A stretch of 62,911 nt of DNA, the filler included, from Streblomastix strix (taxonomy: Eukaryota): the NCBI GenBank assembly GCA_008636045.1. It is 2 parts of 2 records of this genome, joined end to end, with 100 filler letters (N's around TTAATTAATTAA, not from the genome) between each part and the next. Parts side by side here need not be neighbours in the genome. Positions count along the whole stretch, not along the records: positions 1 to 31,433 come from SNRW01000081.1; 1 more part is not named here. One strand, 5' to 3'. The stretch's first letter is position 1. The number at the start of each line of letters is the position of its first letter. Shown one piece after another: positions 1 to 29,948 of the stretch. A program made the translations under genes and the position numbers. Below the pieces are notes generated by a model. That model was given only the letters and a program-made list of their open reading frames with translations. It was not told the origin of the DNA and did not search any database.

Positions 1-900
1 GATGATATTAAACGCTTCTTATGGGTCTGATGGATGAATACTGAGAAATATAACAAGATCAAATTACTCAACAAAGAGAAGACTATAGAAGCACATACTA
101 AGTAATCATGGATGAATGATCATAACTTAGCTGATAACCTTTATGCTGTTCAATTTAATCCAAAGAATTGCAAGTGTAATACATGTTTATAAGTTGCTTA
201 TTTTACACTAGATAATGCAAAATATTGGTATCTTAATTTCATATATAATTTCATGTATAAATGCTTGGATATGACTAAGATTCATTTTATTGAAGGAGAT
301 ACTGATTCAGCTTATTGAGCAATTAGTGGCAAATAAGTTATACTCAATAGCACAAACTAGTAAGAGTACGAAGATAACTTGCATCAAGGATTTAAATATG
401 TCATCAAAGACCAGTCAGCATGGCAGGCTTTGCAAGGTAAGTAGTTCTATGACGCTAACGCAAAATATTACTTTCCAACAATTGAAGAAGATAAATAAGA
501 CGAAAAGAAACTACTAAGTTTATCTATCGAAAATGAAGGAGATGAGATATTTGCATTAGCCCCCAAAAATTATTATATTCATACATTTAAAAGTAATTTA
601 ATTAATCGATATAATAGAACTTAAAGGAGTTAATCTAAGATAGAACAATATAAACAAATAAGACATAATTGATAATATCGTTAATGGAAAAATAACATAA
701 GGAACTAATATTTGATTAAGTTAATAAGCAGGTTAACTGTAAGAAGGTTAACTATCAAAGACTTATTGTATGAGTAAGTTATTATCAACTAAGAATGCGT
801 TAACTGGTATATAAACTAAGATGATAGTACTTAAAAAATAGTTAAAGTTGTCTACCATTCATCCGTGGATTAACTGCTGATAGTTCTATTGACTTAGTAG
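1..900 (+). pseudogene. Protein-primed family B DNA polymerase, C-terminal part, disrupted
   Basis: Motif B ILNASYG at 5-25, motif C EGDTDS at 292-309, then ALAPKNY and LKGV. Frameshifts near 33 and ~605, with in-frame TGA at 316-318 and 713-715. Confidence 0.9.
411..444 (+). repeat. Copy 1 of a ~27-34 nt dispersed micro-repeat, inside pPolB
   Basis: ccagtcagcatggcaggctttgcaaggtaagtag, 27/34 identical to 15729-15762. Confidence 0.7.
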
Positions 901-971
901 ATAATCGAAGATTCAGAAACTATAAGTCTAAGCTTAGCAGAGCTCAAATCTATGATTTCAAACCTATGGTT

Positions 972-2075
972 TCAAGTTGATTTTTTAGCATTTATGCCAG
1001 TGCCTTTGGCGTTACCTTTCTTTTTAAGCTATTTTTTATCATATTTCTTTTTAAGTTCTTTCTATGCTTCTATTGTTGCAGTCATTTATTTTTCGCTAAT
1101 GAAGTTCTTTTTAATTTTAGCTTAATTCACTTTCTCAACTTTTGATAGAGCTTTGTTCATTTATATGTAAGAAGATATTTTATCATTTATTCTCATACTT
1201 ACAACCTTCTCTGGGAATTGAACCGCATTAAGAGAATTTAATCCCCAATCCAATGAGCCTAACTTATAATTAATTGCATCATTCATTCTAGTCATTTCAT
1301 TTGCTTATAAATCTTCAATTTTATCTTATTCAGCTTATTCTTATACCAATGATTTTTATTATTAAGGTTCTACAACTGGAGATGCAAGTGGTATACCTTC
1401 TAATACATCATTACCTAATTGTTCCTGATTATTTTCAGTCTCAAACCCCTTATCTTAATGAAGCACTTCATGTATCTCTTTTTATGTTGCTTCATTTATA
1501 ATATCTTCTCTTTCTTTATATTAATTTGTAAGTAATTCTTTAGTAACTACGTCTTAGGAAGGTTAATTTTATAATGCATTGTAATTTAAATATGGTTATA
1601 TATTTTTATAATTGTATATACCAGAGGCAAGTTATGCATTAACATTAGATATTGCAACTAACGAAGGATCACCTACTCCAACAGCATTATTTATCATATT
1701 TTTTGCTATTGCTTATGGTTATATCTAATCACGTAATACATCTTAAGCTATTGATCTCATTGATAGTAGATCTAATGATTTTGGTTCTATTTCTCTTCTA
1801 TATCTTCTGAGATTATCATCTTATTTTTTACCAAAAAATGATGCTGTTTCTTTTAATCCATATTATCTTATACCTGATTATCTTAATTATTATTGATTTT
1901 AATCCACAAAATAACTAATCACATCTATCTTTCTACTATAAATCTATGATTATTAACAATAATTAGTAATTCTTCCTCTTAATGTAGCAACAGTATCATT
2001 TTATTAACAAGTAATACCAATTTTATCAGCTAAATTTTAAAGTGATTCTGTACTACCATTTGATATGTAAGACAT
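972..2075 (-). CDS. Viral hypothetical protein, 367 aa, with a Lys-rich C-terminus (possible core/DNA-binding protein)
   Basis: Open from ATG 2075 to TGA 972 in code 6 (MSYISNGSTESLQNLADKIG...KKKGNAKGTGINAKKST). Confidence 0.7.
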
Positions 2076-2091
2076 TTTAATTCACTAAAAA

Positions 2092-2304
2092 ATGAAAGTA
2101 AAAGAATATATGAAATACAGATAATTCTTATCATCATTACTCTGTTTAGCTACTAAGTCAGATCCAACGATAGAACTACGATTCATTCTACGATAATTTA
2201 ATAGACGATTGACAATGGATTAATTAAAATAGGTTATTGATCAAGGATAAATAAACAGTTATGAAGTAGTACTATTATTGATGAATATGTTGGAAGACAA
2301 ATGA
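2092..2304 (+). CDS. Viral hypothetical protein, 70 aa
   Basis: ATG-to-TGA ORF in code 6 (MKVKEYMKYRQFLSSLLCLATKSDPT...). Confidence 0.5.
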
Positions 2305-2324
2305 TTAAGAAAAATAAATAGTGT

Positions 2325-2711
2325 TCATTGATCATAAGTTTCATCTTCTTCTTTATTTTCAGTTATCTCTTTTAGTTTATTTTGTTTATATTTCTCAAGT
2401 ATATTAAGTATAGTGATTATATCTTATTCATCTAGTTTTACCTTTTAAATCTATCGAATAGCAGTACGTTATAATTCAGTGATTGTTTATCTAAATTATC
2501 TAGTTATTGCATATTAGTTCTTTTTAAACACACTTCGTTATTCTCTTGCATTAATTTTAGCCTCTTCATTTGTATTATATTTCTTAGGTCTACCACTTTT
2601 AACACTTTCTTTTTTTTCATATTTAAGTTTTTTAGTAATAGTCTCTTCGATGTTAGCATTTATGCTAGACTCTTCAAGTTTATTAGTTTCATTAACTACG
2701 TTCATTTTCAT
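2325..2711 (-). CDS. Small basic protein with an AT-hook-like GRPKKY motif, 128 aa
   Basis: Code-6 extension of track ORF 2538..2741: KSGRPKKYNTNEEAK followed by a helical region. Confidence 0.6.
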
Positions 2712-3846
2712 TGAGTAAAAAAGTCTATTTATATTTAACAACTAAGTTTTCAAAATTATCACTTACCTTCTTAGCGAAGTAAATAGGTATTTCAACTTAT
2801 TGTATATCTTTATATGGTTTCAATAACCTACAGATTATATTCCCATGCTAATACTTCTCGAATATTGCCAACTCATTAAACTATCTACGCTATTTTTTGA
2901 ATTAATAAGATGTCTTTGAAAAATCAAGGTGAATCAGTATAATATTTCCTTTTGTTAGTTTTGCTAAATAATTCTACGATTATTTAACATCATTTAATTT
3001 CTTCATTTATGATCGTATATATTTACCTTCTAAATTTTCATATTTATTAACCTATGATGGACTATGCTTTAAATCAAAGGCACAATGAGGCTTATCTTTA
3101 TAGAATTTAACTATCTATTACATTAACTTTGGATCTGGCATATCTTTACCAATGAAAGCATCTCTATTGGTTCGAATAACTCTGTCAACTTCTCTATTTT
3201 TATTAGTGAATTTTGATTTACTCATGTAATATTATATTTAATGAGCCTATAAGAAATCCTAGACCATTTTACTACCGATAGCGCTTTCACTATCAGACCT
3301 TAGATTAGTTACATGCTGTTATTTAAACAATTAATCGAGACACCTTAATATCTCCTATTATGTTTTATTCTTTATCTCCTAGACAGCTAAGAATTTAATA
3401 TTGATATTAATGCAGAATAGGTAACAACTTTGTTGCTGGCCTAAAGGCTAATCTTTCTTTCCATCGAATACTATATCTATCTCCCATGATCCTAATGATT
3501 TAGAGAAGTAAGGTCTATAGAATTACTTTAATGGTTTTAATTTATAATCCTTTATCTAATTCTATTTATCGAAAGGATTGGATAGAACAGCTTCGATCGC
3601 TGTCAATGTATGATTCTTTTTAACTTTTTCTATATGGTATTCTTAAAATTTATCTAGATATTACTTATATAACTCAGCTATTATTTTAACATTTTTTACT
3701 TTAGACCCACAAATACCTTCAGTGAATTATTTTTCTAAATCATTTGAGGCAAACTTAGTTTCAAATTATCGATTCAAACTAGTTACAAACGCTTTCAAAC
3801 TCAATTTATTTATCTCATAAGCCTTATCATTAATGAATTTATTCAT
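2689..3846 (-). CDS. Retroviral-like (rve) integrase of Polinton type, 385 aa, open frame
   Basis: GSWEIDIVF, YLFCININ, NLRSDSESA, VDRVIRT and FYKDKPHCAF follow the c-integrase core order D..D..E/D. Confidence 0.85.
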
Positions 3847-3903
3847 TTCAATTCAAAAATATTGGCTCAAACCAATGGTTTTCTAAATCTGAAGGATATA
3901 TCA

Positions 3904-3937
3904 TTGACTTGCTACGCAAAGCCAGCTTCACTGACAA
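3904..3937 (-). repeat. Copy 2 of the dispersed micro-repeat
   Basis: Reverse complement reads ttgtcagtgaagctggctttgcgtagcaagtca and shares gaagctggctttgc with copy 3. Confidence 0.65.
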
Positions 3938-4069
3938 ATCTTCGATTCGCAAGCATATTTGATAGCGAAGTTGAATATCTACTTGAATAGCTCATGCCAA
4001 TTAATCCCAACTGATTCAAGAGCGTTAATCATTGTCTGATTGAATATCTCCATTTTCAGTATAATAAAT

Positions 4070-5531
4070 TCATTGAATATATTACAGCTCCAATAGTAAA
4101 TTGTTATATATATCCATAAACTAGTTAGATATTCTTCATCCAAAATTATCATACAGTTTAAATACAAAGGATCTACTCATACCCATTAATCCAGTCTATG
4201 ATAACATATTCTATCCCCAAAGAACTGGTGCTCCTATTAGATTCTATTTATAGCACACATTCGAAAATCCTACATTGTTAATGGTTTGCATTATTGAACC
4301 CATCATTTGATTATCAACACATATAATTAGCATCTAAGGATACTCTAAGAAATTACCGATATAGGGGCAAAAGATGGGTATGTCCGATAGTAATGACTAT
4401 TAATTATACTTAGTTTTATAGAACCAATCTTATAGTTCTATTATTTTTTCTTTAGAGGTAATATTAGACATTTGGTTAGCATTATTTTAGTTAACACAAT
4501 CATACAAATCTAGTCCACCAGTTAACTATACGTATAAGTTATTAGATAATGCTATACTATTAACGTACCAGTTACTATGTGGTTTAGAGTTATATTCATT
4601 AACTACTGATGGAATATATTACCCATATTAATTTAATAGCTAACATTCAGTATATATATCCTTCCATTATTATACGTTTAATGCAGGTAATGAACATATC
4701 ATTCTAATGGGAATGTATTAATGCTATTGCTAATTTATTGCATCGTTAATGATTATACATTAATTGGGTTAATATCAGTTTCATCTAAATTACCATTAGT
4801 TATTGTTATCTATTTCCCAAAATTATACATTACATTAATGGAATAAGACTAATCCACACTCTATAGGGATTCGATTGATGTTATGAAGTTATTACCATTT
4901 GGCTCATATAATCTTATTAGACCAATACATCGATAAGCTATTACTAAATCTGTATCAAATATCCAATAATGATATAAGAAAGCATCCAAGCGTAAATTGA
5001 TATAGTTTAATGCAGAACTACATATATCTGTACCATTATTTATAATCAATATATATATTTTTCTATTATTTTTGAGTATGTTCATTTACACCGTTATTGA
5101 AACAGATAGAATTGGTGTTAATGCTATTGATTAGTTCGAAATACTCTTCCTGATGGTCAATGAATGAGTTAAAATCAGTTTATTTCAATGCGTTAACTGA
5201 TGGACTATATAGATATGACTATTTATCTGAATTTAATGTATACATGTTATTTATTATAGTATTCATTTTAATTCTAATCGGTGGCAAACTATCAATAGCT
5301 TCTAGTTTATAAGTGCTATTTGCATTCTTAATTTATTACTTCAAATTTAATACTTTTAGATTATCTCGGATTTCTATATAGTCATCGTTAATGAAGATGT
5401 ATAGATTTAAAGGTATATTGGTCATGCTATTAATTTAAAATTATCTATATCCAGTAGGAGCTTGAGCTAACCATTCAATGTAATCCTTTTCGCTATCATT
5501 GTTGATTATTTACAAACCTATTTTAAGTCAT
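4070..5531 (-). pseudogene. Probable minor capsid (penton-like) protein, frameshifted
   Basis: Beta-rich, ~480 codons. N-terminal region reads PTGYRQFQINSMTNIPLNLYIFINDDYIEI and the C-terminus reads SFVFKLYDNFG*RISNQF..NNLLLELQY, resembling single jelly-roll penton ends. Several frameshifts and one TGA. Call rests on pattern and context. Confidence 0.55.
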
Positions 5532-5561
5532 TTATTCAAGACAAAAATAAAATCAAGATCA

Positions 5562-6377
5562 TCAATTGATTGACCTCTATGTAACGGTTTATCTAATTAG
5601 CTCCATTATCTCGGTATCATCTTATTCATTTGGTATAGTAAAACTAAGTTTTTTCATTTTAATACCTCTGTCTTTTAACACATCCTTAATGGCATAGTTA
5701 ATTGTTACCGCTATTGGAAAATTATCGATATGGATAATAGATCTTTAAACAATTTAAGGGTATTTATTTATGCTATTTTTATGTAATCTATGTACTTTGT
5801 AATACATTCCATCAATGTATTCGTTAATGAATTCAATTGAGTATATATAATCATATTGTTTATCTTGTAGCACTAATCTAGGTTCCATATGTTGAATTGT
5901 ATTACTATAGTCAGCGTTTTCACGTTAAAGTTGTTCAATAAGTCGATTCGTATTCGCTTCAAAATTAGTGAGTGTTTACTAACTATTTTCGTTAATTGAG
6001 TCTATTATATCTGTAACTATATCAAGATATTTAATTCTTGTTTTCATACAAATGATATTAACTAATCTTGGATTAATATATGTTCCTCTTACTTCATTAG
6101 TATATTCATTGATTAATTAATATTCAATAGAGGGCTGGCTGGTTTTCAAGCCAGCACTTTTTTCATTGATATATTGCTTATATTACCTATACAAATGTGT
6201 TGAAGTTATATTCTTTAATAATTTGTTTGTTTATTCATGTTCATTAATCTTTTAAGCTAGTTTCGTTGCATTAATGTATCCATCTTATTCACGTATCATT
6301 ATCTCAAAGCTTTTATATGTTCCGATAGTGAAGATTTCGTTATTGGATGAAATTTTAGTTGCTATTGGTATAGTCAT
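5562..6377 (-). CDS. KilA-N domain DNA-binding protein, 271 aa
   Basis: DGYINATKL and RGTYINPRLV are KilA-N signatures, followed by a coiled coil. The frame is open in code 6. Confidence 0.85.
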
Positions 6378-6423
6378 TTTAATTATTGAATAAATAATGG
6401 AAAAAATAAATATGTTAAATAAA

Positions 6424-6675
6424 TCATAATAAATTATTATCATTAATAATTTCATTAATATAATCATTATACAACTTTTCATTAAATTATATATGTACTA
6501 CATCTTTTAATTCCTTCATGTAATAAAGTTTATTATGTAATCTTTGTTTTATAATATCCTTATTTTACTTCATTGTTTGTCTCAATTATTATTCTTAATC
6601 CATTAATGATTATATCGTTTATAATTGTTAATAATGTGTATTAATTAATTACTATTCGCTTTCATCTCCATTCAT
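6424..6675 (-). CDS. Viral hypothetical coiled-coil protein, 83 aa
   Basis: ATG-to-TGA ORF in code 6 (MNGDESEQQLINTHYQQLQ...). Confidence 0.45.
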
Positions 6676-6861
6676 TTACATATATTTTAAAAATCAAAAA
6701 TAATTCTATAGTCATATTTTATCAACTTCTCTCATAATTTAAGATATTTCTATATAACAATTATTATATTCATCAATATCTGAATTAATGCAATCTTGAG
6801 TAAAATTATTCAATTAATCTATTAGGATAGAAGACTCTATGAGTTTATCGTTAGTTTGATT

Positions 6862-6897
6862 TTATACTCTTTTAGAGTCTAGACTTTCAGTATATTA
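6862..6897. repeat. Palindromic repeat with agtctagact core, copy 1; copy 2 at 9412-9445
   Basis: ttatactcttttagagtctagactttcagtatatta versus ttatactctttaagtctagactttcagtatatta. Confidence 0.75.
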
Positions 6898-7127
6898 ATG
6901 AGGCTATTAATCAAGCAATTTATCTATTTTATCGAGTTTATTAATAACATAATTTAATTTCCTAAATATATCAAATAGTTATTATGTTTCTTCTATCAAT
7001 ATATATATGCTACAAGTTTTCTTATATATCATATGTATTGTCCTAACCCATTTAAATTAATGATAAAAAATAAAAAATCATATTCTTAGAGTCTGAGAAT
7101 CTCCGATTATCATTATCAGTGAAATGG

Positions 7128-7148
7128 CTGGTGACAAAGTCACTATCT
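7128..7148 (-). repeat. GTGAC-nnn-GTCAC hairpin overlapping a stop codon, copy 1; copy 2 at 13411-13431
   Basis: Minus-strand AGATAGTGACTTTGTCACCAG versus plus-strand AGATAGTGACTGTGTCACCAG, 20/21 identical. Confidence 0.75.
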
Positions 7149-7352
7149 TGTACCATTAATGTATCGATCAACTCCACCAGCTAATTTTGCCCCTACTCCC
7201 ATAGCTGATCCTACTGCTGGATGAATCATAGAAACTGGACCTGCTAATGTATCTAGAATTTTATTCAATGTTGGTGCAACCCAACTTGCAGCCTTAATTA
7301 TACACCCTAATACTTTGCTACCGAAATTTTTCAATCCAGACCAAAACTCCAT
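7140..7352 (-). CDS. 70-aa amphipathic Gly/Ala-rich protein, adenovirus protein VI-like (candidate membrane-lytic virion protein)
   Basis: MEFWSGLKNFGSKVLG matches the pVI amphipathic helix WSG(I/L)KNFGS. The gene is divergent from, and adjacent to, the major capsid gene. Confidence 0.6.
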
Positions 7353-7412
7353 TTATTACAATAAAAATTAATCATTATAAACGTTTTAAGCTGTTTCTTT
7401 TTTATAATCTAA

Positions 7413-9382
7413 ATGTCATTTGCGTCAAGCGATTATTTGAAACGATTAGCCTCTGCACAACATTAGGATTACATTAATTCATACTTATAATTCTAGGAAA
7501 TAATGCAGACTCAAACTATATATGCATAATCATTTTGTATATCTAAGCAATAATTCTTTGATTAACCTGTAATTTAACTTACGAATGATGGTGCACATTA
7601 TACTAGAGCGCCGCTTGCAGCAAGAGGAACTGCTACCTGTTCAATGATTCAAATTTGTTAAATCAGTTGGCAAATTTAGATACCAGCGAATACATTAGCG
7701 ATATAGGTTAATTAAGTAGTAGCTACAGGTGATGAAGGTTAAGTAAGAAATAGATAAATATCAAATTATAATGCTATTAATACTGGAGTATGGAATGATC
7801 TTTAAACAGTAACAATGTAATAACGTGGAACAGCAGCCACACAGTAGCCATATTACACTAATGAACACATTAAATTTTGGTTAGGTTTCTCATCAGCTTG
7901 TGGACCATTTAATTAGATTGCTATATGTAAAGATTCATAGAAATTGTGGCATACATCAATATATGCTAGAGAGTAAGCAATAATTGCATCCAACTCATTG
8001 ACTGATTAATGTACCTCTAATTCTGTAACAGTTTCTCCACTTGAAAGTATAGTAGAGGGTAAACGACATTGTGGGATATTTATTGATATACCTGTATCTG
8101 TTATTAATGTTAAAGATGCCTTTAATTATTTGATTCGTTATGATATAGTATTTAGTGGAGTAATGGATCTGAACTAACTGAACCCTATCTTCAACAGCTT
8201 TCCTGTATTGACTAGAAATTATGCGTCATTGTATATATAATTTTGGATGTAAGACTTCTTGTAAGATTTGAAGTTTGCTTGGTTAAATAATTATAACCCT
8301 GTCGATAATACATATCTAGCCTATACAATGATTCCACCAGAGAAACCAGATATAATTTTCTTGAAAAATAGAGCTGCAGCAGTAACTTATAATCAATATG
8401 CTATTCGATTGGTTAATATGGAAAGTTAACCTAATACAACAAAAATACCATCAGCAGCTATAAGTTAAATCAAGAATGCTAAATTTACTGAATTATATAT
8501 AAATAACCTATGTTTTAATATAGCGAATGAAGCTGTAATTAGTGATATGATTCGTAATACAAGACTCATTAACTTCAACACATAAGTTTTTCGTATTTAA
8601 TCGTCTAACTATCCTGTAAGTAATATTGGGGATGAAGGTGGATTTATTTAATCAATAATGTCGTTTGCTAACATCAAGTCTCTATTCGTTACATTTGCTA
8701 TGCCATAATATCCTACATGATTATTCCCTGTTCTATTCAAAACCATTGATTTGATTATAAATTAGCGACATGTTATCCCATACGCTTATCCCGCATTAAC
8801 TTAAGATGTCTGTGGATAAATGTTTGATTGTTTCGTTGATTAAGATGTTATTAGTGCCTCATCAGATTTATATCATTCATTAGTGTTTGAAAACTAACAT
8901 ATAGATGATAAGAACTATCCTTATGGAATTGAAGTAGCTGAGATAGTTGGATAACTTAGACCAGTATCTAACATATTTTATAATACTGCATTGAATAATG
9001 GTACTAAAGCTATTAAAACATACTATCCCAATAAATTTATGCTAGCATGGAAACTTGCTACTGATGATTCATTTATGAGAGGGTATAACTCATCTAAGAT
9101 AGGTGCAAGAACTAATATACAAGTATAAATTGGATTCACACCTGTAGATAATATATGTACTGATGAAGCAATTAGACCTGCTGATCTCGATTAAATCAAT
9201 TTTAGTTACTTTACCTCAACTAGAAGTTACCCAAATATTAAGAATGTTAAATTGACCCCATTAACTCAATATCTATATGATAGCGTTGTTCGAATAATGT
9301 TTGATGATATCCCTGAGCCATAAATGCTATCATTAGAGAGGTAATTGGTGAGATAGGTGGAAGCGCTATCCGTTCAGGTTGA
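7413..9382 (+). pseudogene. Probable major capsid protein (double jelly-roll), ~655 codons, one premature TGA and a terminal frameshift
   Basis: Longest beta-rich ORF in the element (FWLGFSSACGPFNQIAI; DLNQLNPIFNSFPVLTRNYASLY). TGA at 8718-8720 and an AG duplication near 9338. Identity is inferred from size, composition and context. Confidence 0.7.
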
Positions 9383-9411
9383 ACGAAGTGAATTAGATTA
9401 GGATGAAAATA

Positions 9412-9445
9412 TTATACTCTTTAAGTCTAGACTTTCAGTATATTA
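9412..9445. repeat. Palindromic repeat copy 2, just downstream of the capsid gene
   Basis: aagtctagactt palindrome inside an outer tatact/agtata stem. Confidence 0.75.
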
Positions 9446-9461
9446 TTTTTACTTAATTTAA

Positions 9462-9992
9462 ATGAATCAAGATAGAAAGAAAGTATTAAAAGCATTAAAG
9501 ACAAAAATAATGAAGAGCAATTTTCAAGATAAATAGCTTATACAATAACTTGTCAATATGCTAAAGGATATAGTTAATGAAGATAAAACAAAAAGTAGCA
9601 CACATCCACATTACTATGAGGTATCTAATCTTAGTATTAATTTTGATATTATGAATGAAAGACTATACTTATTTAAACGTTAAAGTAATATAGAATAATA
9701 CAATAATAAGCTATACAATGATAATCATTATGACTATATAAAAACATATAATAAGTGTAAATAAGAGATAAATATTAATCCAAAAATAATTAAAATAAAG
9801 TAATACCTATTAATGGATGTCACTAACGAAGATAAATAGATATATAATTAGTTTGTATCAGAATAGAATCATAAGTTGTTTTGTGATTACTATTAATAGA
9901 ACACCATCATAACATCTCAAATCATAGTTGAGCCAATATAGTCGATGGAGTCGACATTTTTATTAAAAAAGTTAGATAGTCAATGTACTTGA
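9462..9992 (+). CDS. Viral hypothetical protein, 176 aa
   Basis: ATG-to-TGA ORF in code 6 (MNQDRKKVLKALKTKIMKSNF...). Confidence 0.55.
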
Positions 9993-10701
9993 TTAGCTCA
10001 TTACACTTGACTGAAAATATTAATTCATCACTATCGTAATACTTATCTTTAATTTCTTAGAAGTCCTGTTGTTATTTTTATTCTGTCTAGTTTATTGGTT
10101 TCTCATTAACGTAACCATATCCACTGAGTAATGATTCAAAGATATGATACACTTCATTATCTGTTGAATTAATCTTCTACCCTAGTTTTTAAGCTATCGT
10201 AAAGAGTTATAGCAAAGCTCTAAGAATCTCTGATTATTATTCCATTTATATCTTCAAAAAAATAATCAATTGAGTTTTCACAATTCATTAGCTTATTCAT
10301 AATCATTATATCTTGTTTCTTCAGCTTCTCTTGCTGCTCTTTTATTATGTAAATGACATTAAATATTGCTAAGTTGTTTCATTTTTTTAATAAATTCTTT
10401 CCTTCTTAATTGATTTAATGCTATATCTTATTTACTAACTGCTTAAAATTTATCCTAATTAAGTATTTATATAATGTCTCTGTAATTATTCATTTGATCA
10501 TGTATTAAGAATAACATCCCATCATTATCTAGCTCAATTATATTATAATTATTGTATGCAATATTACTTATCAATTCTATTTCATCTTATTCATTTATAT
10601 GTACTACATTATAACTCATTTATGATAAAATAAAAAAACCAAAGGGTTGAGAGAAACGAAAGATAAAAAATCAAAGAACTTTGTTTTAACAAAAGTCATC
10701 A

Positions 10702-11994
10702 TCAGATGACACGTCCATTAAATGTTAATGTGTTTCCATCAGCTGATATTTATAAACCTCTAGTAAGATCACTAGCTTATGAGGCTACTACTATTATAAA
10801 ACTTTAAGGTGATTATGTAGCATTAATTGATGGTGTATATATTACCCACTATCCATCAATAGCTCCTCCATTAGTTGTTCTACTACAGCCTAATTAAATT
10901 GATGAACTACCTACAGTTTCTACTGATCTAGATATTCACAAACCATCATCGAATCCGAGTTAAGAAATAGAGTTAATTTAAACGGTGCCACAAGTAACCC
11001 CAGCGAATGATGTCTTTGTACCTGCATTTAATATAAATTGTTAAGTTATTTTAACATTAGGGTAAGCTGAAGATAAGGCAGTACCTCGATAGTTAATGAA
11101 TAATTTTTGATTAGTCTATGTTGAATTATATGAAAATATTAACTCATTTTCATTAAACATCTATTCACAATAATAATTAACTGAGTTACTAGCGAATAAA
11201 ATTAATGGTTTAGTACTATCTTAAGGTTATAACTGAAACTAGTCATTTTTGAATGTCTTTCCTCCTACTATTGTCTCAGTTTATGATTTATTAACATTTT
11301 AACTATATATTTATCCTCTTGTTCCACTAGCACTATCGTGTGGATGGATAGAAGTTGTTGTATTTAATGGATGTTAATGATCTCCACGAGAATACTCAGT
11401 TGAAGTTCCTACAACTCCAGTTCCACTATCAATTAATGGGTTTGCATCACTTGTGGCGGTTACTTAATCTGGTACTATTTTATCTATTTCAACCCATTAA
11501 CTTCCATCATAATCCCATACTAATAAATCTTCAGCACTATACGTATAATCACCTATTGCAGGATTAGCTAAAACAAGTATCTCATCGTTAGTTGTAAATT
11601 AACCTCTGAAATGTGTCTATCGAGCTAACTCACTGTTAATAACTTATACATCAGCCTATAACTATCCTATGTCTTAACTGTAATCATTAATCTATTATTA
11701 TATGTTTTATACTTACTATTCTATTATGATTATTTTATATATGAAATCATTGTTTATTAATTGTATATTGTTAACGATTAATAAGCCATCTTACGTTAAT
11801 TTCATCGCATAATCTATGGGGTTATTCTTATGACAATTCAATAGGTTATTTTAGTCATCAATTATTAATTAATAGTTATAATTCTCAATAAGACTATTCG
11901 AACTACTCTTCTTTGAGTACTACATATAATAACTAATATCTGAGTGTATTAATCGTTTGATTACTGCCAATTGCTATTATGAAAGTGAAGTCAT
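10702..11994 (-). pseudogene. Tail-fibre-like virion protein 1, 430 codons, one internal TGA
   Basis: Coiled coil, then SDANPLIDSGTGVVGTSTEYSRGDHQHPL, TETIVGGKTF, DDGL*ISR and RGLQISADGNTLTFNGRVI. TGA at 10936-10938. Confidence 0.65.
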
Positions 11995-12029
11995 TTTAGT
12001 TAATTTAAATGAGAATTATTTCATTAATC

Positions 12030-12422
12030 ATGTCAATATTGAATTATTTATTCTATGGAGCTAATTTCTTATTATCTGTCAATAGTTTATCGATACCAAA
12101 TTAAGCATAAGAGTTAATCAATGTAATTAAAAAGCTATGCAGTTATTTAGATGTGATAGTGATTCCAATTAGTAGTATAGTATATATTGATAAATTCTTC
12201 TATCATCGCAAAATGTCAATTTAAAAGGAAACTTAAGGTTTGAGTTTCACTAATCAGCTTTGGAGTTAATATACTATTGACGAGCTGTATTAATTAGTAT
12301 AATTAGCGATCAACTATAAGGATATTAAATTTGCTTAGCAATATCGGTATCTAATTACTTTAAAGTTGATTAAATAATCCAATTATAATGAGTCTTGCAG
12401 AGATAAAGCAAATATAGTTTGA
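12030..12422 (+). CDS. Viral hypothetical protein, 130 aa
   Basis: ATG-to-TGA ORF in code 6 that overlaps the ATPase start. Confidence 0.45.
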
Positions 12423-13419
12423 TACTTATAACATGTTAGATGAATATAAAATTCGTCCATTAACGCTTAAATCAATCTTCCTTATTAACGCAAATCATTA
12501 TATTGTAGGTGCAGTTGGAAGTGGTAAAACAACATTAATGAGTAAACTAATTGTATTATATAAACATATAATTAACCCCTATATACTATACTTCTCAAAT
12601 CTTGGACCAGATAAAAGTATGTCATTAAATATGAATTATAAAAATATATAAATTAATAACATAACTTATGATGATGCGATGATGTTCATACCTTAATTCG
12701 ATGAGATTAAATACAAAGTTAAAGAGATATATACCTATTGGAAATTAAAGCAAATGAAAATTAAGTAATACAGTGATTACATTAAATAGCTTAAATAGAA
12801 TATGATCGATGAAAATGAAATTAAAAAGAATGAATCATATTAATAGTTTAAAGCTAGAATGAAAGAATAGTTTAAGATCTATTGCATTGAAACAATTAAC
12901 GAATATAGTTAATAAAGCAGGGTTATGTAATATGTTATCCCATTATTAGTTCAAAATGTTAGTTAATAGAATAAGTTAAAAATTATTAACACATAAGAAG
13001 TAGATAAAGATGGAGTATCAATAATTAAAATACTAAAATTACCTATACTTTAAAATGCCCGATTATTATCTATATTAATGTTCTTTGATGATATTGGATC
13101 TAATACAGATATATAAAGATATACTTCATAGTTATCTCGTACAATAACTCATCTCGTTAGTGATAGTAGACACTCTAAAAATACACTTTTCTTTGTTGCT
13201 TAACGAATGTAATACTTGTTCAAAACTGCACGAATATTATGCCTTGTAATAGGGCTTGAGGTTAGTTTAGGTGAGAGTGATTTAAAATAAATTTATAATG
13301 AGAATATTATAAATACATTAATGGAGTAAGAGCTATTGATATTATATAACACATTGAATAAGTATGAGTTTATTGTTATCAATAAGTGGTTGCAAAGATT
13401 TGAAATAATTAGATAGTGA
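12388..13419 (+). CDS. A32-like (FtsK-HerA) genome-packaging ATPase, 343 aa, open frame
   Basis: Walker A GAVGSGKT, Walker B LMFFDD, then SRH..TLFFVAQ..Y..KTAR, typical of A32 packaging ATPases. Confidence 0.9.
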
Positions 13420-13431
13420 CTGTGTCACCAG
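13411..13431 (+). repeat. GTGAC-nnn-GTCAC hairpin copy 2, overlapping the ATPase stop codon
   Basis: AGA TAG TGA CTGTGTCACCAG. Confidence 0.75.
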
Positions 13432-13689
13432 AACCATCAGTTTTAATGAAATCATGCTTTTATCAAACTATATTGCTAAGAATACTCGAAGAGTCTTAGC
13501 CTAAAGGCAATCTATGATTATTATTTTAGTTATAAATGATCTGGGAAATAATTAGCAGTGTTTCATTAATGATAATAGCTATTATCAATCTACTAGGCTA
13601 TATATTAACGTTATAATAGATTTCAATTGATAATGAAGAGATTAGTAATGAAGTAAGAAACTCAATTTACTCATAATTATTAATTATAT

Positions 13690-14706
13690 ATAGCATAAAA
13701 ATCACATCGTTATACACAAAAATCATTAGGTAAATAATACTAGCATATAGCATTAATTTTAATATGCCAATTGGGATCAATATATCAATCAATAGCAATC
13801 GGATTAGTCCATACAACTGGTGTAGTTGCTTACTTAGTTATATACATAACGGCATTAAGTGAGATATTACGAGGTGTTCCACTGAACTTGGGTCTAGCTT
13901 AATCATACATAAGAGAGAATAAGGTATAAGCAGTATTCCATTAAGTACTAGGGTTAGAGTGAGTTATTGCTATAGAACTATATCCACGGTTATTTTATAA
14001 GGTTAATGTACCCTAAGTGAACGTATCAAATACACCAATACCGAGTACTTATTATATAGTATAATCAATAGGCTTAGGTGCTATAATCTCGTTATTGAAT
14101 TTAAGTGATGTACAATCGAAATCTATAATCAATCCCTTGTAATCACAAGCTTAATCTTCTTATTTTTGTATCCAAAATTATGATGAAGTTGATCCAGCTT
14201 TCCATACACCATCTCTATCTATGGGGTCAGTGTTACAACCAGTTAAAACGAAGCTATCCCAATTCGCTTTAATTTTCATTATTCTGATACCCTAATCTAA
14301 TATATTATTATTTGGTTCGATAATCAATTACTCCATCGCATAAGAATAGTTTTTAGGTAAAAAATCACATACATCAGTTGTATCTCCATTAGCTAGAAGT
14401 AATTAGTTATCAGTTCCATTAGTTTTTATAAATTAATTAGCATAGATTGAGTTGGAAAATTATTTATACCCTGTTACTGTTTGATCAGTATCTAGTATCA
14501 TTAAATCGGATATATTAACATTCTTAGTTTTCATATATTAGCTAAAGTAAGTAAACAGTTTAATAATCTCAGTATCAATGAAAGAGATTACTTATTTTTA
14601 TAGCTTCTCTAATTACATTATTTCGTCTTATTTTTGTTATATCTCTTACAGTTTTTTTTTACATCTTAATTATATCCTCTTCAGTTGGTTCGATCAATGA
14701 TTCCAT
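13690..14706 (-). pseudogene. Tail-fibre-like virion protein 2, disrupted; 3' end approximate
   Basis: N-terminal coiled coil with a +1 slip in the A9 run (14652-14660), then DTDQTVTGYKQF..FIKTNGTDNQLLLANG and a beta-rich C-terminus. TGA at 13785-13787. Confidence 0.6.
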
Positions 14707-14746
14707 TTGTTTAAAAATAAAGGATACAATAGTTGAACGAAGAGAA

Positions 14747-15389
14747 TCAGAATTCATTTATATCAATTTCTTATTATGGCTTATCAGATAGTCTAATGAA
14801 GTCTTTGTTAATGCGATATAGTTTCTCAACAGAGTTCCACAGCACATTATCAAGTACACTAATGCTTACATTTTTAATTAATACATCCATTACTCTAACA
14901 AGGTCATTCTTCTTATATTTCTTTGCCATACATGAATGTGATTACATTAATGGTTCCTCTAATACAATTTCAATATCTTCTTCAGTTTCTTATGTTATCA
15001 ATGACCAAAATTTAATGAAGTTATCGCTATTCAATATAAAATTATCTCCTAGCTTTCTTTATGTAGTTAATCTCCATATACAATCAATAACAAATTTAAG
15101 TACCTCTAGATTAGGATGTGCTAAGAATGTATTTTTAACTATTTCCTCGGGTTCAACTTAAGCAGTCTCTCGTTCTACTTCTTTGTATTTATTATTATTG
15201 TAATGTCTCTTAGGCCTTAACTTCATTCTTAGTGGTGTCATCTTTAATTTCGCTTTAGCTCAACCGTTAGGTTTCTTATTATTGAGCAGATAAATTTCTC
15301 AAGGCTTAATCAATTGACTACAATCTAAATTTATCTTCTTCCGTTAATTCTTTCTTCATTTCTTCTATTTATTTCTTTGATTTACTCAT
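14747..15389 (-). pseudogene. Viral hypothetical protein with one frameshift
   Basis: MSKSKKQIEEMKKELTEEDKFRL...FLAHPNLEVLKFVIDCIWRL...; the span is not a multiple of 3. Confidence 0.5.
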
Positions 15390-15453
15390 ACGCAGTTGAT
15401 TCCTCTCGATGCTTGAAATCATTTAAATCGATTAAAAATTTTATCATTGATAA

Positions 15454-16046
15454 ATGGATAAATCACAAGCCTTAAGAAAATTAAAAGAAGGCAGTACAAC
15501 ATTTGAAAATTTCAATGGAAGATATTTAATGTAAATAGGTAAGTAGATTAAAATAGTTGAATATGGTTAGAAGGTTCCTAAAATATTAACATAAACTTAG
15601 TAAAATAAATTGCTATAAATGCCTGTATAATCGAAGATTCATAAGAAACGCTAATAAAATAATAAGAAAAGCAATTAATGTATCAAGATGATGATGATGA
15701 AAGTGAAGAAGAATGAGAGATATAAGTACCAGTCAACGAAGCTGGCTTTGCAAAGTAAGTAATTAAAAAGAAGGTTAAATAAATTTAAAAATAACCCACT
15801 ATTAAATATTCTACTCCATAGATAGATCTTGAAGAGCTAATTAAATTGAGAACTGAAAATTAATTAATCAAGGAATCACATATCGAAGCATAAAAGTAAA
15901 TTAATAAATATAAGAATAAATTAAAATCAATGAATTAAGTAAAAGAACCTATTATTGAAGAAACATTTAAAGAAGAACAAGAAATGAAAGAGCCAATTTA
16001 AGATTAAGTTAGTGAAAGATATTTTAATGAGTTTGAGTTATATTGA
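15454..16046 (+). pseudogene. Viral charged/coiled-coil protein, disrupted
   Basis: MDKSQALRKLKEGSTTFENFNGRYL..., with a frameshift near 15670 and a TGA near 15714. Confidence 0.45.
15729..15762 (+). repeat. Copy 3 of the dispersed micro-repeat
   Basis: ccagtcaacgaagctggctttgcaaagtaagtaa. Confidence 0.7.
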
Positions 16047-16455
16047 CGATTAACACTTTAGTGCTAAGCAGCATAGTTGTTTATTTTTACAACATCCATT
16101 TCATTATCTGCATCGACTATCTATACTTTGTCATCTTCATAATTACTGCAAATTATTAATTTTGATAATCACCGCACCCCTCTCCCTTTGATGAATAGTT
16201 CAAATCATTGAAATTAATCATTTAGTAAGAATGACATTTTAAGTTTGTATATACAATGTATTGATGTAAATGAGTTTCTGCCTAGGTAGAAATGGTGATT
16301 TAGGCTGTGATTTGAGTGGGACGTTATTTTTAAAAAATTAGAGTTATTATAGATATTTATACCCGTTATTTCTGTGGAGTACTGGCGCTGGGTTTATTTG
16401 TGTGATTATCTATAAGATTTTAAAAATAGTGCCAATTTCGCCATTAATATCTTCT

Positions 16456-16775
16456 CACATGTAATAAAAAATTGTAAAGATCAACGAAAGGATATATTTA
16501 TTACTAAGATCAAAAGATATTATCTAAAGTCAGAATACAATAACTTACTTGAATTATCACCCATCTTTAGAAATATTGAGATAGAAAACAACGATGAAGT
16601 GATAGGTGAATATATATATTCAGAAGCACAAAAACATTCAATACCAATGATTAACAAAGATAGAAAACTAACATTATTACTTGATACTAATGATAAATTT
16701 ATTGTATATAATAACAATTATCTTTGGCTTCCTATTGATCTTGGTTTCATCATTACGATTAAAACGCTATTACAG
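16456..16775 (+). pseudogene. Internal fragment of a second pPolB-like gene
   Basis: YNNLLELSPIFRNIEIEN..VIGEYIY..KDRKLTLLLDTN..NNYLWL..DLGFII resembles the region between motifs A and B of Polinton polymerases. No catalytic motif is present. Confidence 0.55.
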
Positions 16776-16851
16776 TAGAAGGGTGATATCTCTTTTCTAT
16801 GTAAAAATGATATTTACGTGAATTAATCAATGGAAAATTAAGAGATGATGA

Positions 16852-17376
16852 TCATTTTTGTTATACATTATACTCTTCATCATTAAACTTGTAAATAAAC
16901 ACTTTGTTATCATTATCTTCAATGTACTATTCTAGCTCAGCTATTTTATCTTCCTTAATCTTATATAATCTAAAATGTTTCTTCATACGATGTAGTCGTA
17001 TAGTTTCACAGTTCTTAGGAATTTATAATCTGAAATTTCCTGGCTTAAAAGAATCAGGACAGTATTATTGAGCTTCATCACATAACCAACAAACTTTTAA
17101 CTATTTATAATATTTAATACAGAATCAATCTATGTCAATTAATGATATCTCGATAATTTATTTCTTAGCCTCAATCATTGATATGATTCAAGGGTCAAAT
17201 TATGAAATATCTAATTTAAGAAAGTATATTATTAGATTATCATAAAAACTTTCTTGATTTATGTTCTGAAATAGATTCTTGAAGTAACCAGTATTCTTCG
17301 TATATTTAAAATACAACTTATTCATCTGTATATTCCATTTTCCCTAAAATATATTAAATTTGATTTTTACTTGCAT
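16852..17376 (-). pseudogene. C-terminal fragment of a D5-like primase-helicase, two TGAs
   Basis: FYDNLIIYFLKLDISQFDP*IISMIEAKKQIIE resembles the FdPr.iP.teaK segment that follows the SF3 helicase domain. No Walker A is retained. Confidence 0.5.
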
Positions 17377-18205
17377 ATAAAAATGAAATCATTTTATCTT
17401 TTAAGTATTTTTGTTAAGTGTGCAATATGTGATATTTTCCGCATTTCCGCCGATATAAGTGTCATAGGTGTAAGGGCAATTATCTCGTAGGATCCTCAAT
17501 CAATATATTTTTTGTAACAGGTAGATTAGGTAATGCTGTATATATTTTCTAGCATGTAGACATTGAAATGAGCTCGTAAACTCTTTCTAATTTATATTTT
17601 CAATATATTTAGTCTTAATATTTCCTATTCATTGCTATAAGTATGGAGAATGGTAATTTTTCAATCATGGATTCTTGAGTTAATAAGAAAAGCTGTTTTA
17701 AAGAATCAATTAGCACTAGGATCATCACATGCATAAACAGATAAAATGTGGATATTCAATTCATCAGTAGTTACCCTTGATTGGGGAGATGTCCTTGAAT
17801 TAGAAGGAAGACTAATTGGAGCTAAAGAAGCTAGATCTCTATTTGCTACAGATCAAAAGTGATTAATGGTAATAAAAGGATGTTTAATAATATATAACTA
17901 CTTCAACTTGGTCCAACTTTTCAGTCAAAAACTCTATTGAAATTATTTATATAAATTTTTGCTTCAATCCCAAACTTTTATGGAGTTTGTGAATCGATTA
18001 CTGAAATTCATGTATCATATATTTTCTTTATCACATCTCCTTTATCAATCTCCTGGAAATGCCATCACGCAACTTTGACAAGAAAATAGGTGAATTGTTG
18101 ACAATGGTATCTAATAAGCTAATGGGCATGAGATGCTAGCAATCATTCACGGGAGGATATGCTCAAGCAGTTCGTTGATTGAATTTGAAATAAGAAAAAA
18201 GGATA

Positions 18206-19786
18206 CAGTCAGTCCTAATTCTCAGTTATTTGCTAATTTTCAGAAAAAATAAAAATAATATGTTGCGAATTATTAAACGATATAAGTATATTTATCATTT
18301 TATTATTACAAATTGTGAAAATATAAAATTATAGTTTGAAAAAATTCAACAAATAACTCAATCATCCAGAAGGTCGCAGTTGAAAACGCCAAAATCTGAT
18401 TATTTTCTTTTGCGAGTTTACTTTGTGCCAAAGTTTTGCGAGAGTCTGCTATCCTTTTTGCACTACGCTATAATTGGTTCTAATGCGGTATGATTGAAAT
18501 GAACTTTGATTATTTCATAGTCGCTGTTTATTTTTAATCCTACTTTTTTGAAAGAATTTTCGAACGCTGTTTCCATCACAAACATCTAATATGCTGATGC
18601 TGATAACTTAATTATGTCCTAAATTGAATCATAGAATTAATTACCACATAGTTATAACAAATGATGTTTTTATCCGCCGAAGACGTCGACATCCAAAACT
18701 TGAAGATAATGTTTAGAATTTGGAAGAGTTCTAACTAGCACAATGTTGTTTGCACTTAATAACTCTAATATTTCTTATGTTATATGATATTTACAATTAT
18801 CTGATAACAGATACCCCCTCTGTTGGGGGCAGCCGAACTCATCACCCATTTTCTCGAAATATGGTATGAGGAATTCCTTTACAAGTTCAATTAATAGAGC
18901 GGGTCATTGTTGCCTCCTTTTTATCTAAATTTTTTGATATCGATAAGTTTCTTCACTACATAGAAAGGAATGAAGTGTTCGAGTCCCATCGTTATTGAAA
19001 CAAATAAGCTGAACCTAGGTACTTCTATCAACAGGATGGTGTGCAGATCCTTCTCCAACTTGTTTAAACGTTAAATTTCTTAAGATTTCATATAATAAAA
19101 GACAGTATACCCTCTCTCGTCAATGTGATCAATGAAGTAAATATTTTCGCCTTCAAACTATTAATATTGAATTGTACCTTGATCATTAATGTCCATTTCT
19201 TTTATTTTCATTCTTGGAGCTTCAATTTTTGTAGCAGTTTCTTGTTTAATTTCATCTGGATGGCGATTAATCAGCGATTTTTGGAACGAATGGCCAACAG
19301 AGTGGTCAGCTTCCTCCTCTACCTGTTCTGTGAGCTTAACTGGAGAAATTTATTTGCCTTATGCATCTTTATCTCGAAATATCTCAATAACTTTTGTTTC
19401 TTGCTACGGTGATAAAGTAACATTGGCTTTAATAGCGACTTTTTATAAATTCGTCCTATGGGCGCCTCAGGAAATTGCAGAAGATTTGCATCCAATTATT
19501 TCAGACAGTAGTAGTCCTGTCAATCGCGGGATGACCTTTTGGTTTTTTAGTGTTACGATCTTCCTTATGAATTCGTCCTTGCTTCTAAATTGCTCTTTTT
19601 CGAGTATTCTCTGCAATGCGGGGAAATCAAAAAGTTTGATATGAGGATCGAACTTCATTATGATGCATCTGACGTCTATGAATAGGCTCCCTTCAGATTT
19701 CGGCATAATTATCAAGAAATTTATTTGAATTTAAATAGGCCCCAAAATGATAAAATTAACAAATAACTAGGAACTAGCACTGACTG
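18206..19786. mobile_element. pogo/Tigger-type (Tc1/mariner superfamily) DNA transposon, 1581 bp
   Basis: Imperfect 35-bp TIRs (cagtcagtcctaattctcagttatttgctaatttt at 18206-18240, inverted copy at 19752-19786), each flanked by TA, with an internal DDE_1 transposase. Confidence 0.9.
18358..19706 (-). pseudogene. pogo-family DDE_1 transposase, disrupted
   Basis: IDERG, YLLSDNCKYH and LPNSKHYLQVLDVDVFG correspond to DETG, D..H and LQPLD. TGA at 19467-19469 plus frameshifts. Confidence 0.85.
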
Positions 19787-23100: not shown

Positions 23101-23494
23101 TTCAGAATAAGTTGATTAGCAATAAGAAAAAGATACAGATGAATCTAATATGAAAAAAGACATAGATGAATCTCATATGGAAAAAGAAGAAATTTCAAAA
23201 AATGAAAAATAAGATAATTTGGAGTTGGTTCAAACATCATCTATGCACTTTCTTCCCTCAATTTCATATTCTCTTCCCCATTAATCTCCTGGTATTACAA
23301 CAGAGATTTTAGTTCATAAAGAGAATTCTAGATCAGTAATCAATAATAGTTCAGTCTCCATCTTCAATCCGAATCCCATGGCTGGATTTTCAAGCATCAT
23401 TTCAAAGTAATTCGCACACACGAATAACTAATAACGCAAGACTCAATATCTTGGCGAGGCCTCTACACCACTGGCGTTGGAATTTGAGGAATGA
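20130..23494 (+). CDS. BRWD/PHIP-like Tudor-type domain plus bromodomain chromatin protein; 5' exons uncertain
   Basis: FEVGDEVVFVRSAY, WKVGSHF, DPYNAYDVMW and RMSAWEL, then bromodomain APGYSLKISKPICLEIIKSKI..FASDIRLMFNNCLSFN and a charged tail. Stop at 23492-23494. Confidence 0.75.
20935..21125 (+). repeat. Three degenerate ~69-75 nt coding tandem repeats (KPSEPESAKxNQREE)
   Basis: ccttccgaaccagaa...aaagagaaga units near 20939, 21008 and 21083. Confidence 0.7.
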
Positions 23495-28120: not shown

Positions 28121-29948
28121 TCATTCAAATCTACTTCTTTTTCGGCTTTTTTCTCTTGATCTGCTCCTTGATCTACTTCGTGAGTTGCGTTTATTATGAT
28201 GATGATGTCGACTGCTACTTCTGTGATGATTCTCTTTATTAGAATTGAATTCATTGGGAGAATTTCTTTCTCTGCTTCTTTCATATTTTTTCTCTGATTT
28301 ATTGTGATTGTCTTCTGATCTACTTCTCTTTCTTTTTTATTTTTCTTATAAATCTAATTTGCTATCTTCTTACACTTCATCATTTTATTTAGCATTTTCA
28401 GTATCATTTTCTTTAGTATTTGAGCGAATGTTGAATTAATTAGAGATTTAATCCTTTTTTTTATCTTAATTATACGTTATTTTATCTGATTAGTATTATT
28501 CTTAAGGTATCAATTATGTTTGAACATCAATTTAAACTTAGATTTTATTATCACTAAAATTTTCTATCTATTGCTTTGTCAAAGGAGAAAATGCTTAAAA
28601 TTCGTCATTAAATGTTTTTGGAACTTTATTAGTCTATTCAGAGTTGACAGTTTCGAAATTAAATTTATCTTATATCCCAAGTTTTTTCTAATGTTTTTCT
28701 CGCATATCTTATATTCTAGTATCCGTTATTTCAATTTATTGAGATGGAAGTGGTTATTCATCAAAATATGGGTGTTTAAGTGCTTCTTCAGCTGTAATCC
28801 TACGTTCAGGACACAGTGTTAACATCCTAAGTAATAGATCGTACCCAGAATTAGTCAATCTTGAAAAAATTTATCTGCCCTTACCTGTTTCAAGAAGGGG
28901 AGTTAGTTTTGTTCCTTTTTAAGCTTTATTCACTGTTCCTTAAATATTAATTGTTTTGGCTCCTGGAAACTATTTCCATCCAGGCCAGTTTGAGTCTTCA
29001 TCAGGTATTCCAACTCTACTGAATATGCAATTCATTATTTCGAATTCTTTTTTCCCTTCAAAAAACGGTTTTTCGTAGATTAATTCAGCAAATATGCAAC
29101 CACAAGCCCAGATATCAATAGCAAATGAGTATCTTGTAGATCCTAAGAATATTTCAGGAGCTCTATATAATGGAGTTGTGACACCATGTGTACTTTCTAA
29201 CAAAGATGTGGTAATCTTCTGCATCTATTAATTTGATGGAGAAGGAGAAGGAGAAGGTGTTTGTGATTTACTTTGTTATGATGATGATAGTTATGTATAT
29301 TAGGATGTTTATGAAAATTACTTTAAATAGGCTGGAATCATTTCTTAACCAACATTAAAGGCATCAGCAAACCCAATTTCTTTTGCTGAACCAAAGTCTG
29401 CTATTTTAAGTATTCCTTATGTGGATAAAAGTAAATTACTTGTTTTAAGATCTCGATGCATTACCCAATTTTTATGTAAGTGTGAAACACCTTATAGAAG
29501 TTATTTCATTATACATTTAATTTCACTTGAAATAAATGGAGTTTTTGAAGATGTTGTTTAGATAAGATCATATAAATCAAAATCTATATATTCCATTACT
29601 AGATAGAAATCATTCATCATTTAACCTATACAAATTATTAAATAAATAAATAAATATATATATAAACTAATTTGTTAATATCAAACCTTTTACTACCTCT
29701 TTCACATTAAGAAGATTAGGATGATTTTACTAAAGGAGTATTTTAATTTCTCTAAGAAATGTAATTGGGATTCCAGATTTATTATCAGTGACCTTCAATC
29801 TCTTAAGTGCCACTATTTCTCCAGTCTCAATATTCCTTGCTTTATAAACAACACCAAAAGTTCCTTCACTAATTTTCATAATATTTTCAAAGCAATCAAC
29901 AGATCGGCAAGCATTAAGGAAATTAGGTTTTGATTGAATACTATTCAT
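28121..29948 (-). CDS. CDK11/PITSLRE-like cyclin-dependent kinase; one intron at 29626-29686
   Basis: CRSVDCFE, EGTFGVVYKA, VALKR, PITFLRE, HRDLKTSN, IADFG, YRAPE and DIWACGCIFAEL, with an RS-rich C-terminal tail. Confidence 0.9.

Follow-up and report, generated by a model that had tools for sequence, protein, structure and literature searches.

A stand-alone amphipathic miniprotein encoded beside a capsid-like gene of Streblomastix strix, compared with virophage capsid tails and adenovirus protein VI

The question raised by this locus is what kind of protein is encoded by a 70-aa gene that lies directly beside a capsid-like gene in the genome of Streblomastix strix. The first-pass annotation of this DNA had proposed a membrane-lytic miniprotein resembling adenovirus protein VI (pVI), with an intact frame and an N-terminal helix without propeptide. 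The window, i.e., the whole stretch of DNA that was analyzed, has a length of 62,911 nucleotides, and the features that are needed for the argument are the following:

34..669, plus strand, C-terminal fragments with DTDS and KxY motifs, from what is likely a protein-primed DNA polymerase B gene; the window starts inside this gene
2689..3846, minus strand, retroviral-type integrase (Pfam rve, E=1.5e-5, under the curated cut-off)
5562..6503, minus strand, KilA-N protein, downstream of the miniprotein (Pfam KilA-N, E=2e-13)
7140..7352, minus strand, miniprotein gene (frame 7352-7140), 70 aa under NCBI table 6
7314..7346, minus strand, motif F3-K13 of the miniprotein; nine residues equal many adenovirus pVI helices, 11 residues equal three virophage major capsid protein (MCP) tails
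7353..7412, no strand, AT-rich spacer of 60 nt between divergent ATGs
7413..9380, plus strand, likely MCP gene, disrupted in this copy; intact siblings encode about 650 aa
10936..12024, minus strand, fibre-like gene fragment, labelled after a coiled coil and repeats
12388..13419, plus strand, P-loop ATPase, likely packaging ATPase (Walker A; weak Pfam P-loop matches, E=0.0015, under the curated cut-offs)

The miniprotein gene and its element

The minus strand from 7352 to 7140 is translated into MEFWSGLKNFGSKVLG..., and the annotated frame does exist; it has 70 aa under table 6, in which TAA and TAG encode Gln, and 69 aa under the standard code. Table 6 also opens neighbouring viral and host genes, and endogenous viruses that use the genetic code of S. 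strix are already known from passages of PMC10120064. The protein has an amphipathic helix at residues 2-25, followed by Ala-Pro and another amphipathic stretch, then a His/Asn-Pro kink at residues 44-45 and a C-terminal helix rich in Gly and Ala. The first helix begins at residue 2-3, and, thus, the absence of a propeptide was confirmed. The hydrophobic moment of residues 2-19 was 0.53-0.56, within the top 1% of the background (0.53 corresponds to the top 0.6% of 4202 18-mers). The AlphaFold2 (AF2) model of a sibling, P0221, consisted of a helix from 3 to 43, a kink, and a helix from 45 to 66 (pLDDT 64), and Foldseek with the miniprotein model returned no matches.

The capsid-like gene, on the plus strand, has its ATG at 7413; this ATG and that of the miniprotein are divergent and 60 nt apart, in the head-to-head layout that had been annotated. 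The spacer possibly contains a promoter shared by both genes. The neighbour is likely an MCP. It has 274 relatives; among the 120 listed, UniRef names 11 as "Major capsid protein". The AF2 model was beta-rich, but poor (pLDDT 49). The top Foldseek rows were double jelly-roll capsids of iridovirus, adenovirus, chlorovirus, pithovirus and adomavirus, none of them at E<=1e-3. A VIA search gave a best Z of 4.5 with no capsid on top, and a search of PDB sequences with the MCP profile returned no relevant match. As a side observation, this family of about 650 aa may be a second MCP family of S. strix besides the one of about 560 aa that is modelled in Bellas 2023. The four S. strix MCP tags read from the supplement of that study were not among the 120 listed of the 274 relatives, and six tags of the family at 7413-9380 were absent from the portion of the supplement that was searched.

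In the window, the MCP gene is interrupted by an in-frame TGA at 8718-8720, and its last approximately 13 codons are lost near 9340. The miniprotein of the window differs at sites that are conserved in 27 close siblings, namely Gly2 (here Glu), Gly17, Gly23, Gly34 and Pro68. Because the miniprotein deviates at conserved sites and the adjoining MCP is broken, the element is a relic, and the description "intact" is true only for the open frame of the miniprotein.

Based on the polymerase-like, rve, KilA-N, fibre-like and ATPase genes, the region from 1 to about 16 kb is read as a decayed polinton-like element that is clipped by the window start. The DTDS and KxY motifs are taken by us as signs of a protein-primed DNA polymerase B; a Pfam scan of these fragments gave no match. 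Of the 325 inverted pairs, the 25 longest included no terminal inverted repeats, the left end being outside the window. No protease was found with Pfam in 88 frames of at least 110 aa within 1-18400, nor with a virophage-protease profile in 1180 frames. The annotation that no adenain gene is visible agrees with these searches, which do not extend to the left arm of the element; that arm is out of sight because the window begins inside the polymerase gene. The minus-strand ORFs of the element at 972-2075, 4136-5425 and 14747-15241 received no label. The pieces at 4136-5425 could be a broken penton gene, a guess from position and size; the Pfam scan of the 188-aa ORF at 4136-4702 was blank. Towards the element's right edge, 18358-18849 (minus strand) has a weak match to a DDE_1 transposase (E=0.008). 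Further to the right, two genes that look like host genes are read under table 6; they presumably encode a protein of 1001 aa with a stretch resembling a bromodomain (20489-23494, plus strand) and a kinase of the CDK type, whose gene has an apparent intron (28121-29948, minus strand). At 31434-31533, two runs of N enclose a palindromic AT spacer of 12 bases, and two separate contigs appear to be joined there.

The miniprotein family and its link to the capsid gene

The first search retrieved 13 relatives at 71-83%, all named Streblomastix strix, and the profile search retrieved 77 representatives at E<=1e-3; three clusters alone have 15, 14 and 11 members. All named members of this multicopy family are from S. 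strix. A secreted-looking repeat protein, P0203, reached E=8e-5 in the family profile search. Free copies of 66-73 aa with their own stop number 47, and 44 of them have a net charge of +4 to +7. The first-pass annotation had named variation of the motif among copies as evidence against its proposal; the nine residues are identical in 36 of the 47 full-length free copies. In the 10 divergent representatives, 15 face positions were marked; 13 of them are hydrophobic throughout, two are the invariant Gly11 and Ala22, and the polar positions vary. This pattern of conservation indicates that the miniprotein is a real gene family under selection. Gly occupies position 2 in 39 of the 47 copies, which may allow N-myristoylation. 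This is a side possibility only, because Phe follows the Gly and the Ser at position 6, which we take to be usual in the consensus, is missing.

The link to the capsid gene, which the annotation had proposed to check in sibling elements, is also seen there. Ten of 73 tagged miniprotein copies adjoin a tag of an MCP homolog on a contig of equal length, when compared with the 120 listed of the 274 homologs, and about 0.3 would be expected by chance. In addition, the gene models of 12 of 76 relatives continue into the MCP antisense, showing that the same divergent layout recurs. The identities of miniproteins and MCPs were correlated (rho 0.55 over 55 pairs); the pairs are non-independent, and the value was not counted as a test. 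Taken together, the evidence supports a conserved, capsid-linked, stand-alone and amphipathic miniprotein.

Comparison with protein VI and virophage capsid tails

According to passages of PMC8310329, a propeptide and a C-terminal cofactor peptide of adenovirus pVI are cut off by the viral protease, and the protein carries a PPxY motif; its helix is shielded by hexon, attaches to the endosome's inner leaflet, and bends and ruptures it. The motif WSG(I/L)KNFGS that had been annotated as common to the miniprotein and this helix is indeed shared, with nine identical residues. A DNA scan of IMG/VR for WSG[IL]KNFG yielded 51 loci, i.e., 36 adenovirus pVI genes, four virophage MCP tails, eight long phage proteins and three other frames. 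These labels were checked by example, with two loci for pVI (Pfam MCPVI), five for MCP and four for the long phage proteins, three of which were tape-measure proteins and one a tail fibre. The motif was present in all 36 pVI genes that the motif scan recovered.

The comparison of profiles that the annotation had proposed did not extend the similarity beyond the motif. The pVI match alone was non-significant (E=1.7 in PDB, E 0.5-2 with the family profile). With hhalign, the alignment of the family and pVI spanned 20 columns, at a probability of 91.5 and a score of 36.7; with the motif removed, the score was 11.7, and 11 of 40 nulls were equal or higher. A phage tape-measure decoy picked by the motif reached 93%/39 against pVI, the family 91%/37. 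None of 34 family members matched Pfam MCPVI at E<=10, and none of the 47 copies has PPxY or, at the start of the protein, a cleavage motif. Because there is no MCPVI match, the motif-free signal is at the null level and the decoy is equal, the sequence comparison characterizes the miniprotein as pVI-like in one helix, but not as a pVI.

The adenovirus protein VI gene sits next to hexon. Like protein VI (PF02993), the miniprotein is a separate gene adjoining a capsid gene, the nine residues belong to the amphipathic helix at the mature protein's N-terminus, and the hydrophobic moments are similar (pVI 0.52-0.60 for the six shown, virophage tails 0.57-0.65 for the five shown, the miniprotein equal to both). 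In contrast to pVI of about 250 aa, it has 70 aa and lacks the propeptide, PPxY, the C-terminal protease cofactor and the first helical turn ahead of the motif, and no similarity exists beyond about 20 columns. Of the proposal of a pVI-like lytic miniprotein, therefore, the motif, the capsid link and the missing propeptide remained, while the assignment to the pVI family had to be given up.

The second comparison concerns the C-terminal tail of virophage MCPs. Passages of Born et al. 2018 (PMC6048507) show GG|X and GY|G to be the sites at which the MCP tail is cleaved by the mavirus protease. One product, MCPC1, has 51 aa and a predicted amphipathic helix; endosome rupture was proposed for it, and it was undetected in mavirus virions. 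The search of IMG/VR with the miniprotein family returned five loci, all of them virophage MCP C-termini directly behind a Gly-Gly-type site. The three tails that are identical to the miniprotein over 11 residues were found through the motif. A non-circular set of 27 virophage MCP loci was, therefore, gathered by MCP-core patterns, independent of the motif. In all 24 loci that reach the tail the helix lies directly after Gly (mostly xGG). Removal of the five seeds and one duplicate left 18 tails of the same clade as the seeds, which matched a median of 6 of the 9 motif positions.

The family was aligned with these 18 non-seed tails over 53 columns with a probability of 97.2 and a score of 55.6 (hhalign), compared with 19.0 for the best of 80 shuffles and 12.3 for the reversed profile. 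When the first 12 columns were removed, the score was 18.7 versus a null of 9.4+-1.8, and 0 of 40 nulls were as high. The aligned span equals the approximately 51 aa of mavirus MCPC1. Another virophage clade, found with a different query, has a comparable MCP tail. The whole-library search with the family profile contained no virophage MCP at E<=1e-3, and the best HMM scores of virophage MCPs were about 20 bits. On the basis of these alignments the miniprotein is probably homologous to the virophage MCP tail fragment, which by the same measure is a nearer known relative than pVI.

Like the virophage tails (mavirus MCPC1; Sputnik-type, Pfam PF21915/PF22031), the miniprotein has a start of the type F-[WFL]-S-G-[LI]-K-x-F-G, a Pro kink, a Gly-rich second helix, a length of about 50-55 aa in the comparable part, a cationic character and a tie to the capsid gene. 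In contrast to them, it is a separate gene on the opposite strand whose product starts at Met instead of at a Gly-Gly cleavage site, it lacks the Arg-rich end, and its partner MCP belongs to another family. The virophage-type tail motif was absent from all 26 full-length sibling MCPs, most of which end in Gly. A gene that was split straight off a virophage-type MCP was also considered. This simple history is unsupported, because profile comparison gave no similarity between the sibling MCP family and virophage MCPs (probability 0.6).

The main alternative to homology is pure convergence, i.e., a membrane-binding helix that was born in this lineage and is unrelated by descent to virophage tails or pVI. 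The motif occurs also in phage tape-measure proteins, the tail profile matches apolipoprotein C-I, VP4 and nodavirus gamma besides pVI, and the MCP families of the partners are unrelated. However, the family-tail score of about 56 is about twice that of motif-picked decoys (14-30) and of the repeat protein (25), the similarity survives removal of the motif, and the match starts exactly at the post-cleavage N-terminus, in related DNA viruses. Convergence is, therefore, regarded as somewhat unlikely.

Proposed function, packagings and earlier proposals

By analogy, the miniprotein would correspond to the helix-kink-helix of the virophage tail, but be "born mature" from a gene of its own; it would be packaged and rupture membranes at entry. 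This reading is favoured with reservation, and so is, to the same degree, the more general one that the protein functions as a membrane-active virion peptide. The miniprotein and the MCP would be co-expressed from the 60-nt divergent spacer. Removal of Met would expose an N-terminal Gly-Phe-Trp; the virophage fragment after Gly-Gly cleavage starts with Asp/Asn-Phe-x, and, thus, the miniprotein would start like a cleaved product and need no protease. The lytic helix would be kept shielded within the capsid through assembly. After uptake into a vacuole the miniprotein would be released, the cationic helix would settle in the lumenal leaflet, and it would bend and tear the membrane and let the genome pass to the cytosol, as modelled on adenovirus protein VI. 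Some points speak against an entry peptide. The lytic role of the virophage fragment is likewise a proposal, an unprotected lytic helix would require shielding in the producing cell, and short amphipathic helices converge, as the phage, repeat protein and apolipoprotein cases illustrate.

A structural role is the next explanation. An internal cement or scaffold protein would place its hydrophobic face on the MCP or on itself and its Lys face on the DNA, would not lyse membranes, and would stand in for the virophage MCP tail during assembly. Against this, the miniprotein has a Trp/Phe-rich N-terminus and a polar face rich in Gly, as interfacial helices typically do, and it lacks the Arg-rich end of virophage tails. 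The tight linkage to the MCP and the existence of Arg-rich small proteins with a tail-type module are in favour of such a role, as are the proposal that the mavirus tail tethers DNA to the capsid (in passages of PMC6048507) and the binding of adomavirus LO6 to capsid proteins (in passages of 10.1101/341131). A purely structural protein is considered unlikely; entry and structural roles are compatible, because pVI performs both.

A membrane effector that acts outside the virion, either a viroporin for egress or an antimicrobial-type peptide against host-associated bacteria, is quite improbable. Among the named Atlas clusters, cecropin came nearest (0.78) and pVI followed (0.75), each no more than a lead, and holin-like genes are reported as common in these viruses in passages of 10.64898/2026.10.13.758929; but the miniprotein has neither a signal peptide nor a long uncharged transmembrane stretch, its closest relatives are tails borne by capsid proteins, and the gene stays beside the capsid gene. 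That the helix is the first exon of a spliced fibre-like protein is hardly credible: the gene models of 18 of 76 relatives join the miniprotein to fibre sequence, and a fibre-like gene directly follows it in many sibling elements, but the 47 free models have their own stop, the joints vary among models, and in the window the fibre gene lies beyond the MCP. Fusions of models to KilA-N, of which there are two, or to the MCP antisense are regarded as gene-caller artefacts.

Similar modules were found in other packagings. Met-started stand-alone look-alikes are present in metagenomes (P0205, P0273, P0209, P0276, P0277, P0278, P0201), and the family matched these seven with a probability of 98 and a score of 82, the look-alikes having been found with the family profile itself. 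A metagenome motif scan gave three loci, one real stand-alone look-alike (L090), which adjoins a fibre-like ORF on a 1-kb contig, and two chance frames. IMG/VR searches with the stand-alone look-alikes returned four, zero and one loci, only chance matches of 12-18 residues in unrelated long proteins. Eight small Arg-rich proteins (P0264, P0268, P0271, P0272, P0274, P0275, P0279, P0280) contain one or two tail-type units between Gly-Gly-type sites; they match the virophage tails (98/80), not the miniprotein family (1/14 and 8/18). In one virophage clade a basic protein of 400 aa that is rich in Gly sites is encoded directly behind the MCP and has an internal amphipathic helix-kink-helix. It was seen at five loci:

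L092:4105-5328, 400-aa basic protein
L093:7572-8795, 400-aa basic protein
L094:1691-2872, 400-aa basic protein
L095:2000-3205, 400-aa basic protein
L096:4551-5771, 400-aa basic protein

It had no Pfam match, and its score against the miniprotein family was 29-34, near the decoy level. It looks like a precursor in the style of pVI. A tail-like segment in a separate virophage gene behind the MCP indicates that the module can be encoded apart. A common ancestry that includes pVI is, from the sequences, about an even matter at best. Slightly more doubtful is the wider idea that a single ancestral entry peptide recurs in small eukaryotic DNA viruses with double jelly-roll capsids. It would occur in four packagings, released from the MCP tail in virophages, from a separate basic precursor encoded behind the MCP in another virophage clade, and from pVI in adenoviruses, and made ready for use without a protease in the oxymonad family and metagenomic elements. 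If true, the lytic helix of pVI would have a traceable origin, and a route of capsid maturation without protease would exist; if the motif was inherited, endosome lysis by adenoviruses would date to a common ancestor with virophages.

Membrane-active virion proteins like pVI or pX were already proposed for polinton relatives in passages of Starrett 2021 (PMC8502044), where a figure legend carries the label "VI" on non-animal viruses. Adomavirus LO6 was proposed as a membrane-active virion protein (Welch 2020, 10.1101/341131, in part), and passages of Buck 2024 (PMC11071296) introduce the class name Macc. Like this class, which includes adintovirus cupiennin-like proteins, PLA2X, GasderminX, LO6 and the "VI" gene of a non-animal MELD virus, the miniprotein is a predicted membrane-active virion core protein; unlike it, those described in the available passages co-occur with adenain, and LO6 is cut by adenain, a comparison by description only. 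The relevant published passages mention no oxymonad example of the class, and the text passages of the literature that were covered contain no account of the miniprotein family or of the motif shared by virophage tails and pVI. Within that coverage, the sequence link between the virophage tail, pVI and a propeptide-free gene appears to be new, and the proposal of pVI-like proteins in polinton relatives is not. According to passages of 10.64898/2026.06.19.733378, among the major groups of polinton-like viruses the maturation protease is core only in Gosseviruses; the majority of these viruses do without it. For the passage of genomes across membranes in protist polinton-like viruses and virophages, the 70-aa gene offers a concrete candidate answer. 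The conserved motif makes the 2018 proposal on the mavirus tail testable, and the miniprotein offers a short marker for virion modules of elements with capsids too divergent for recognition.

The last comparison concerns RNA viruses. Nodavirus gamma peptide and the VP4 of picornavirus-like viruses are released by autocleavage. They resemble the miniprotein in having an amphipathic helix, a Pro-Gly kink and a second helix, but they belong to RNA viruses with unrelated capsids, the matches of the tail profile to them are weak, and the miniprotein family itself gave no match. Two virophage tails (L086:3121-3300 and L087:3115-3294) match the last 40 positions of the nodavirus capsid (Pfam Peptidase_A6, E=1.1e-4), a sequence match that supports a putative membrane-lytic function class. 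The two matches point to either convergence or exchange between lytic peptides of RNA and DNA viruses.
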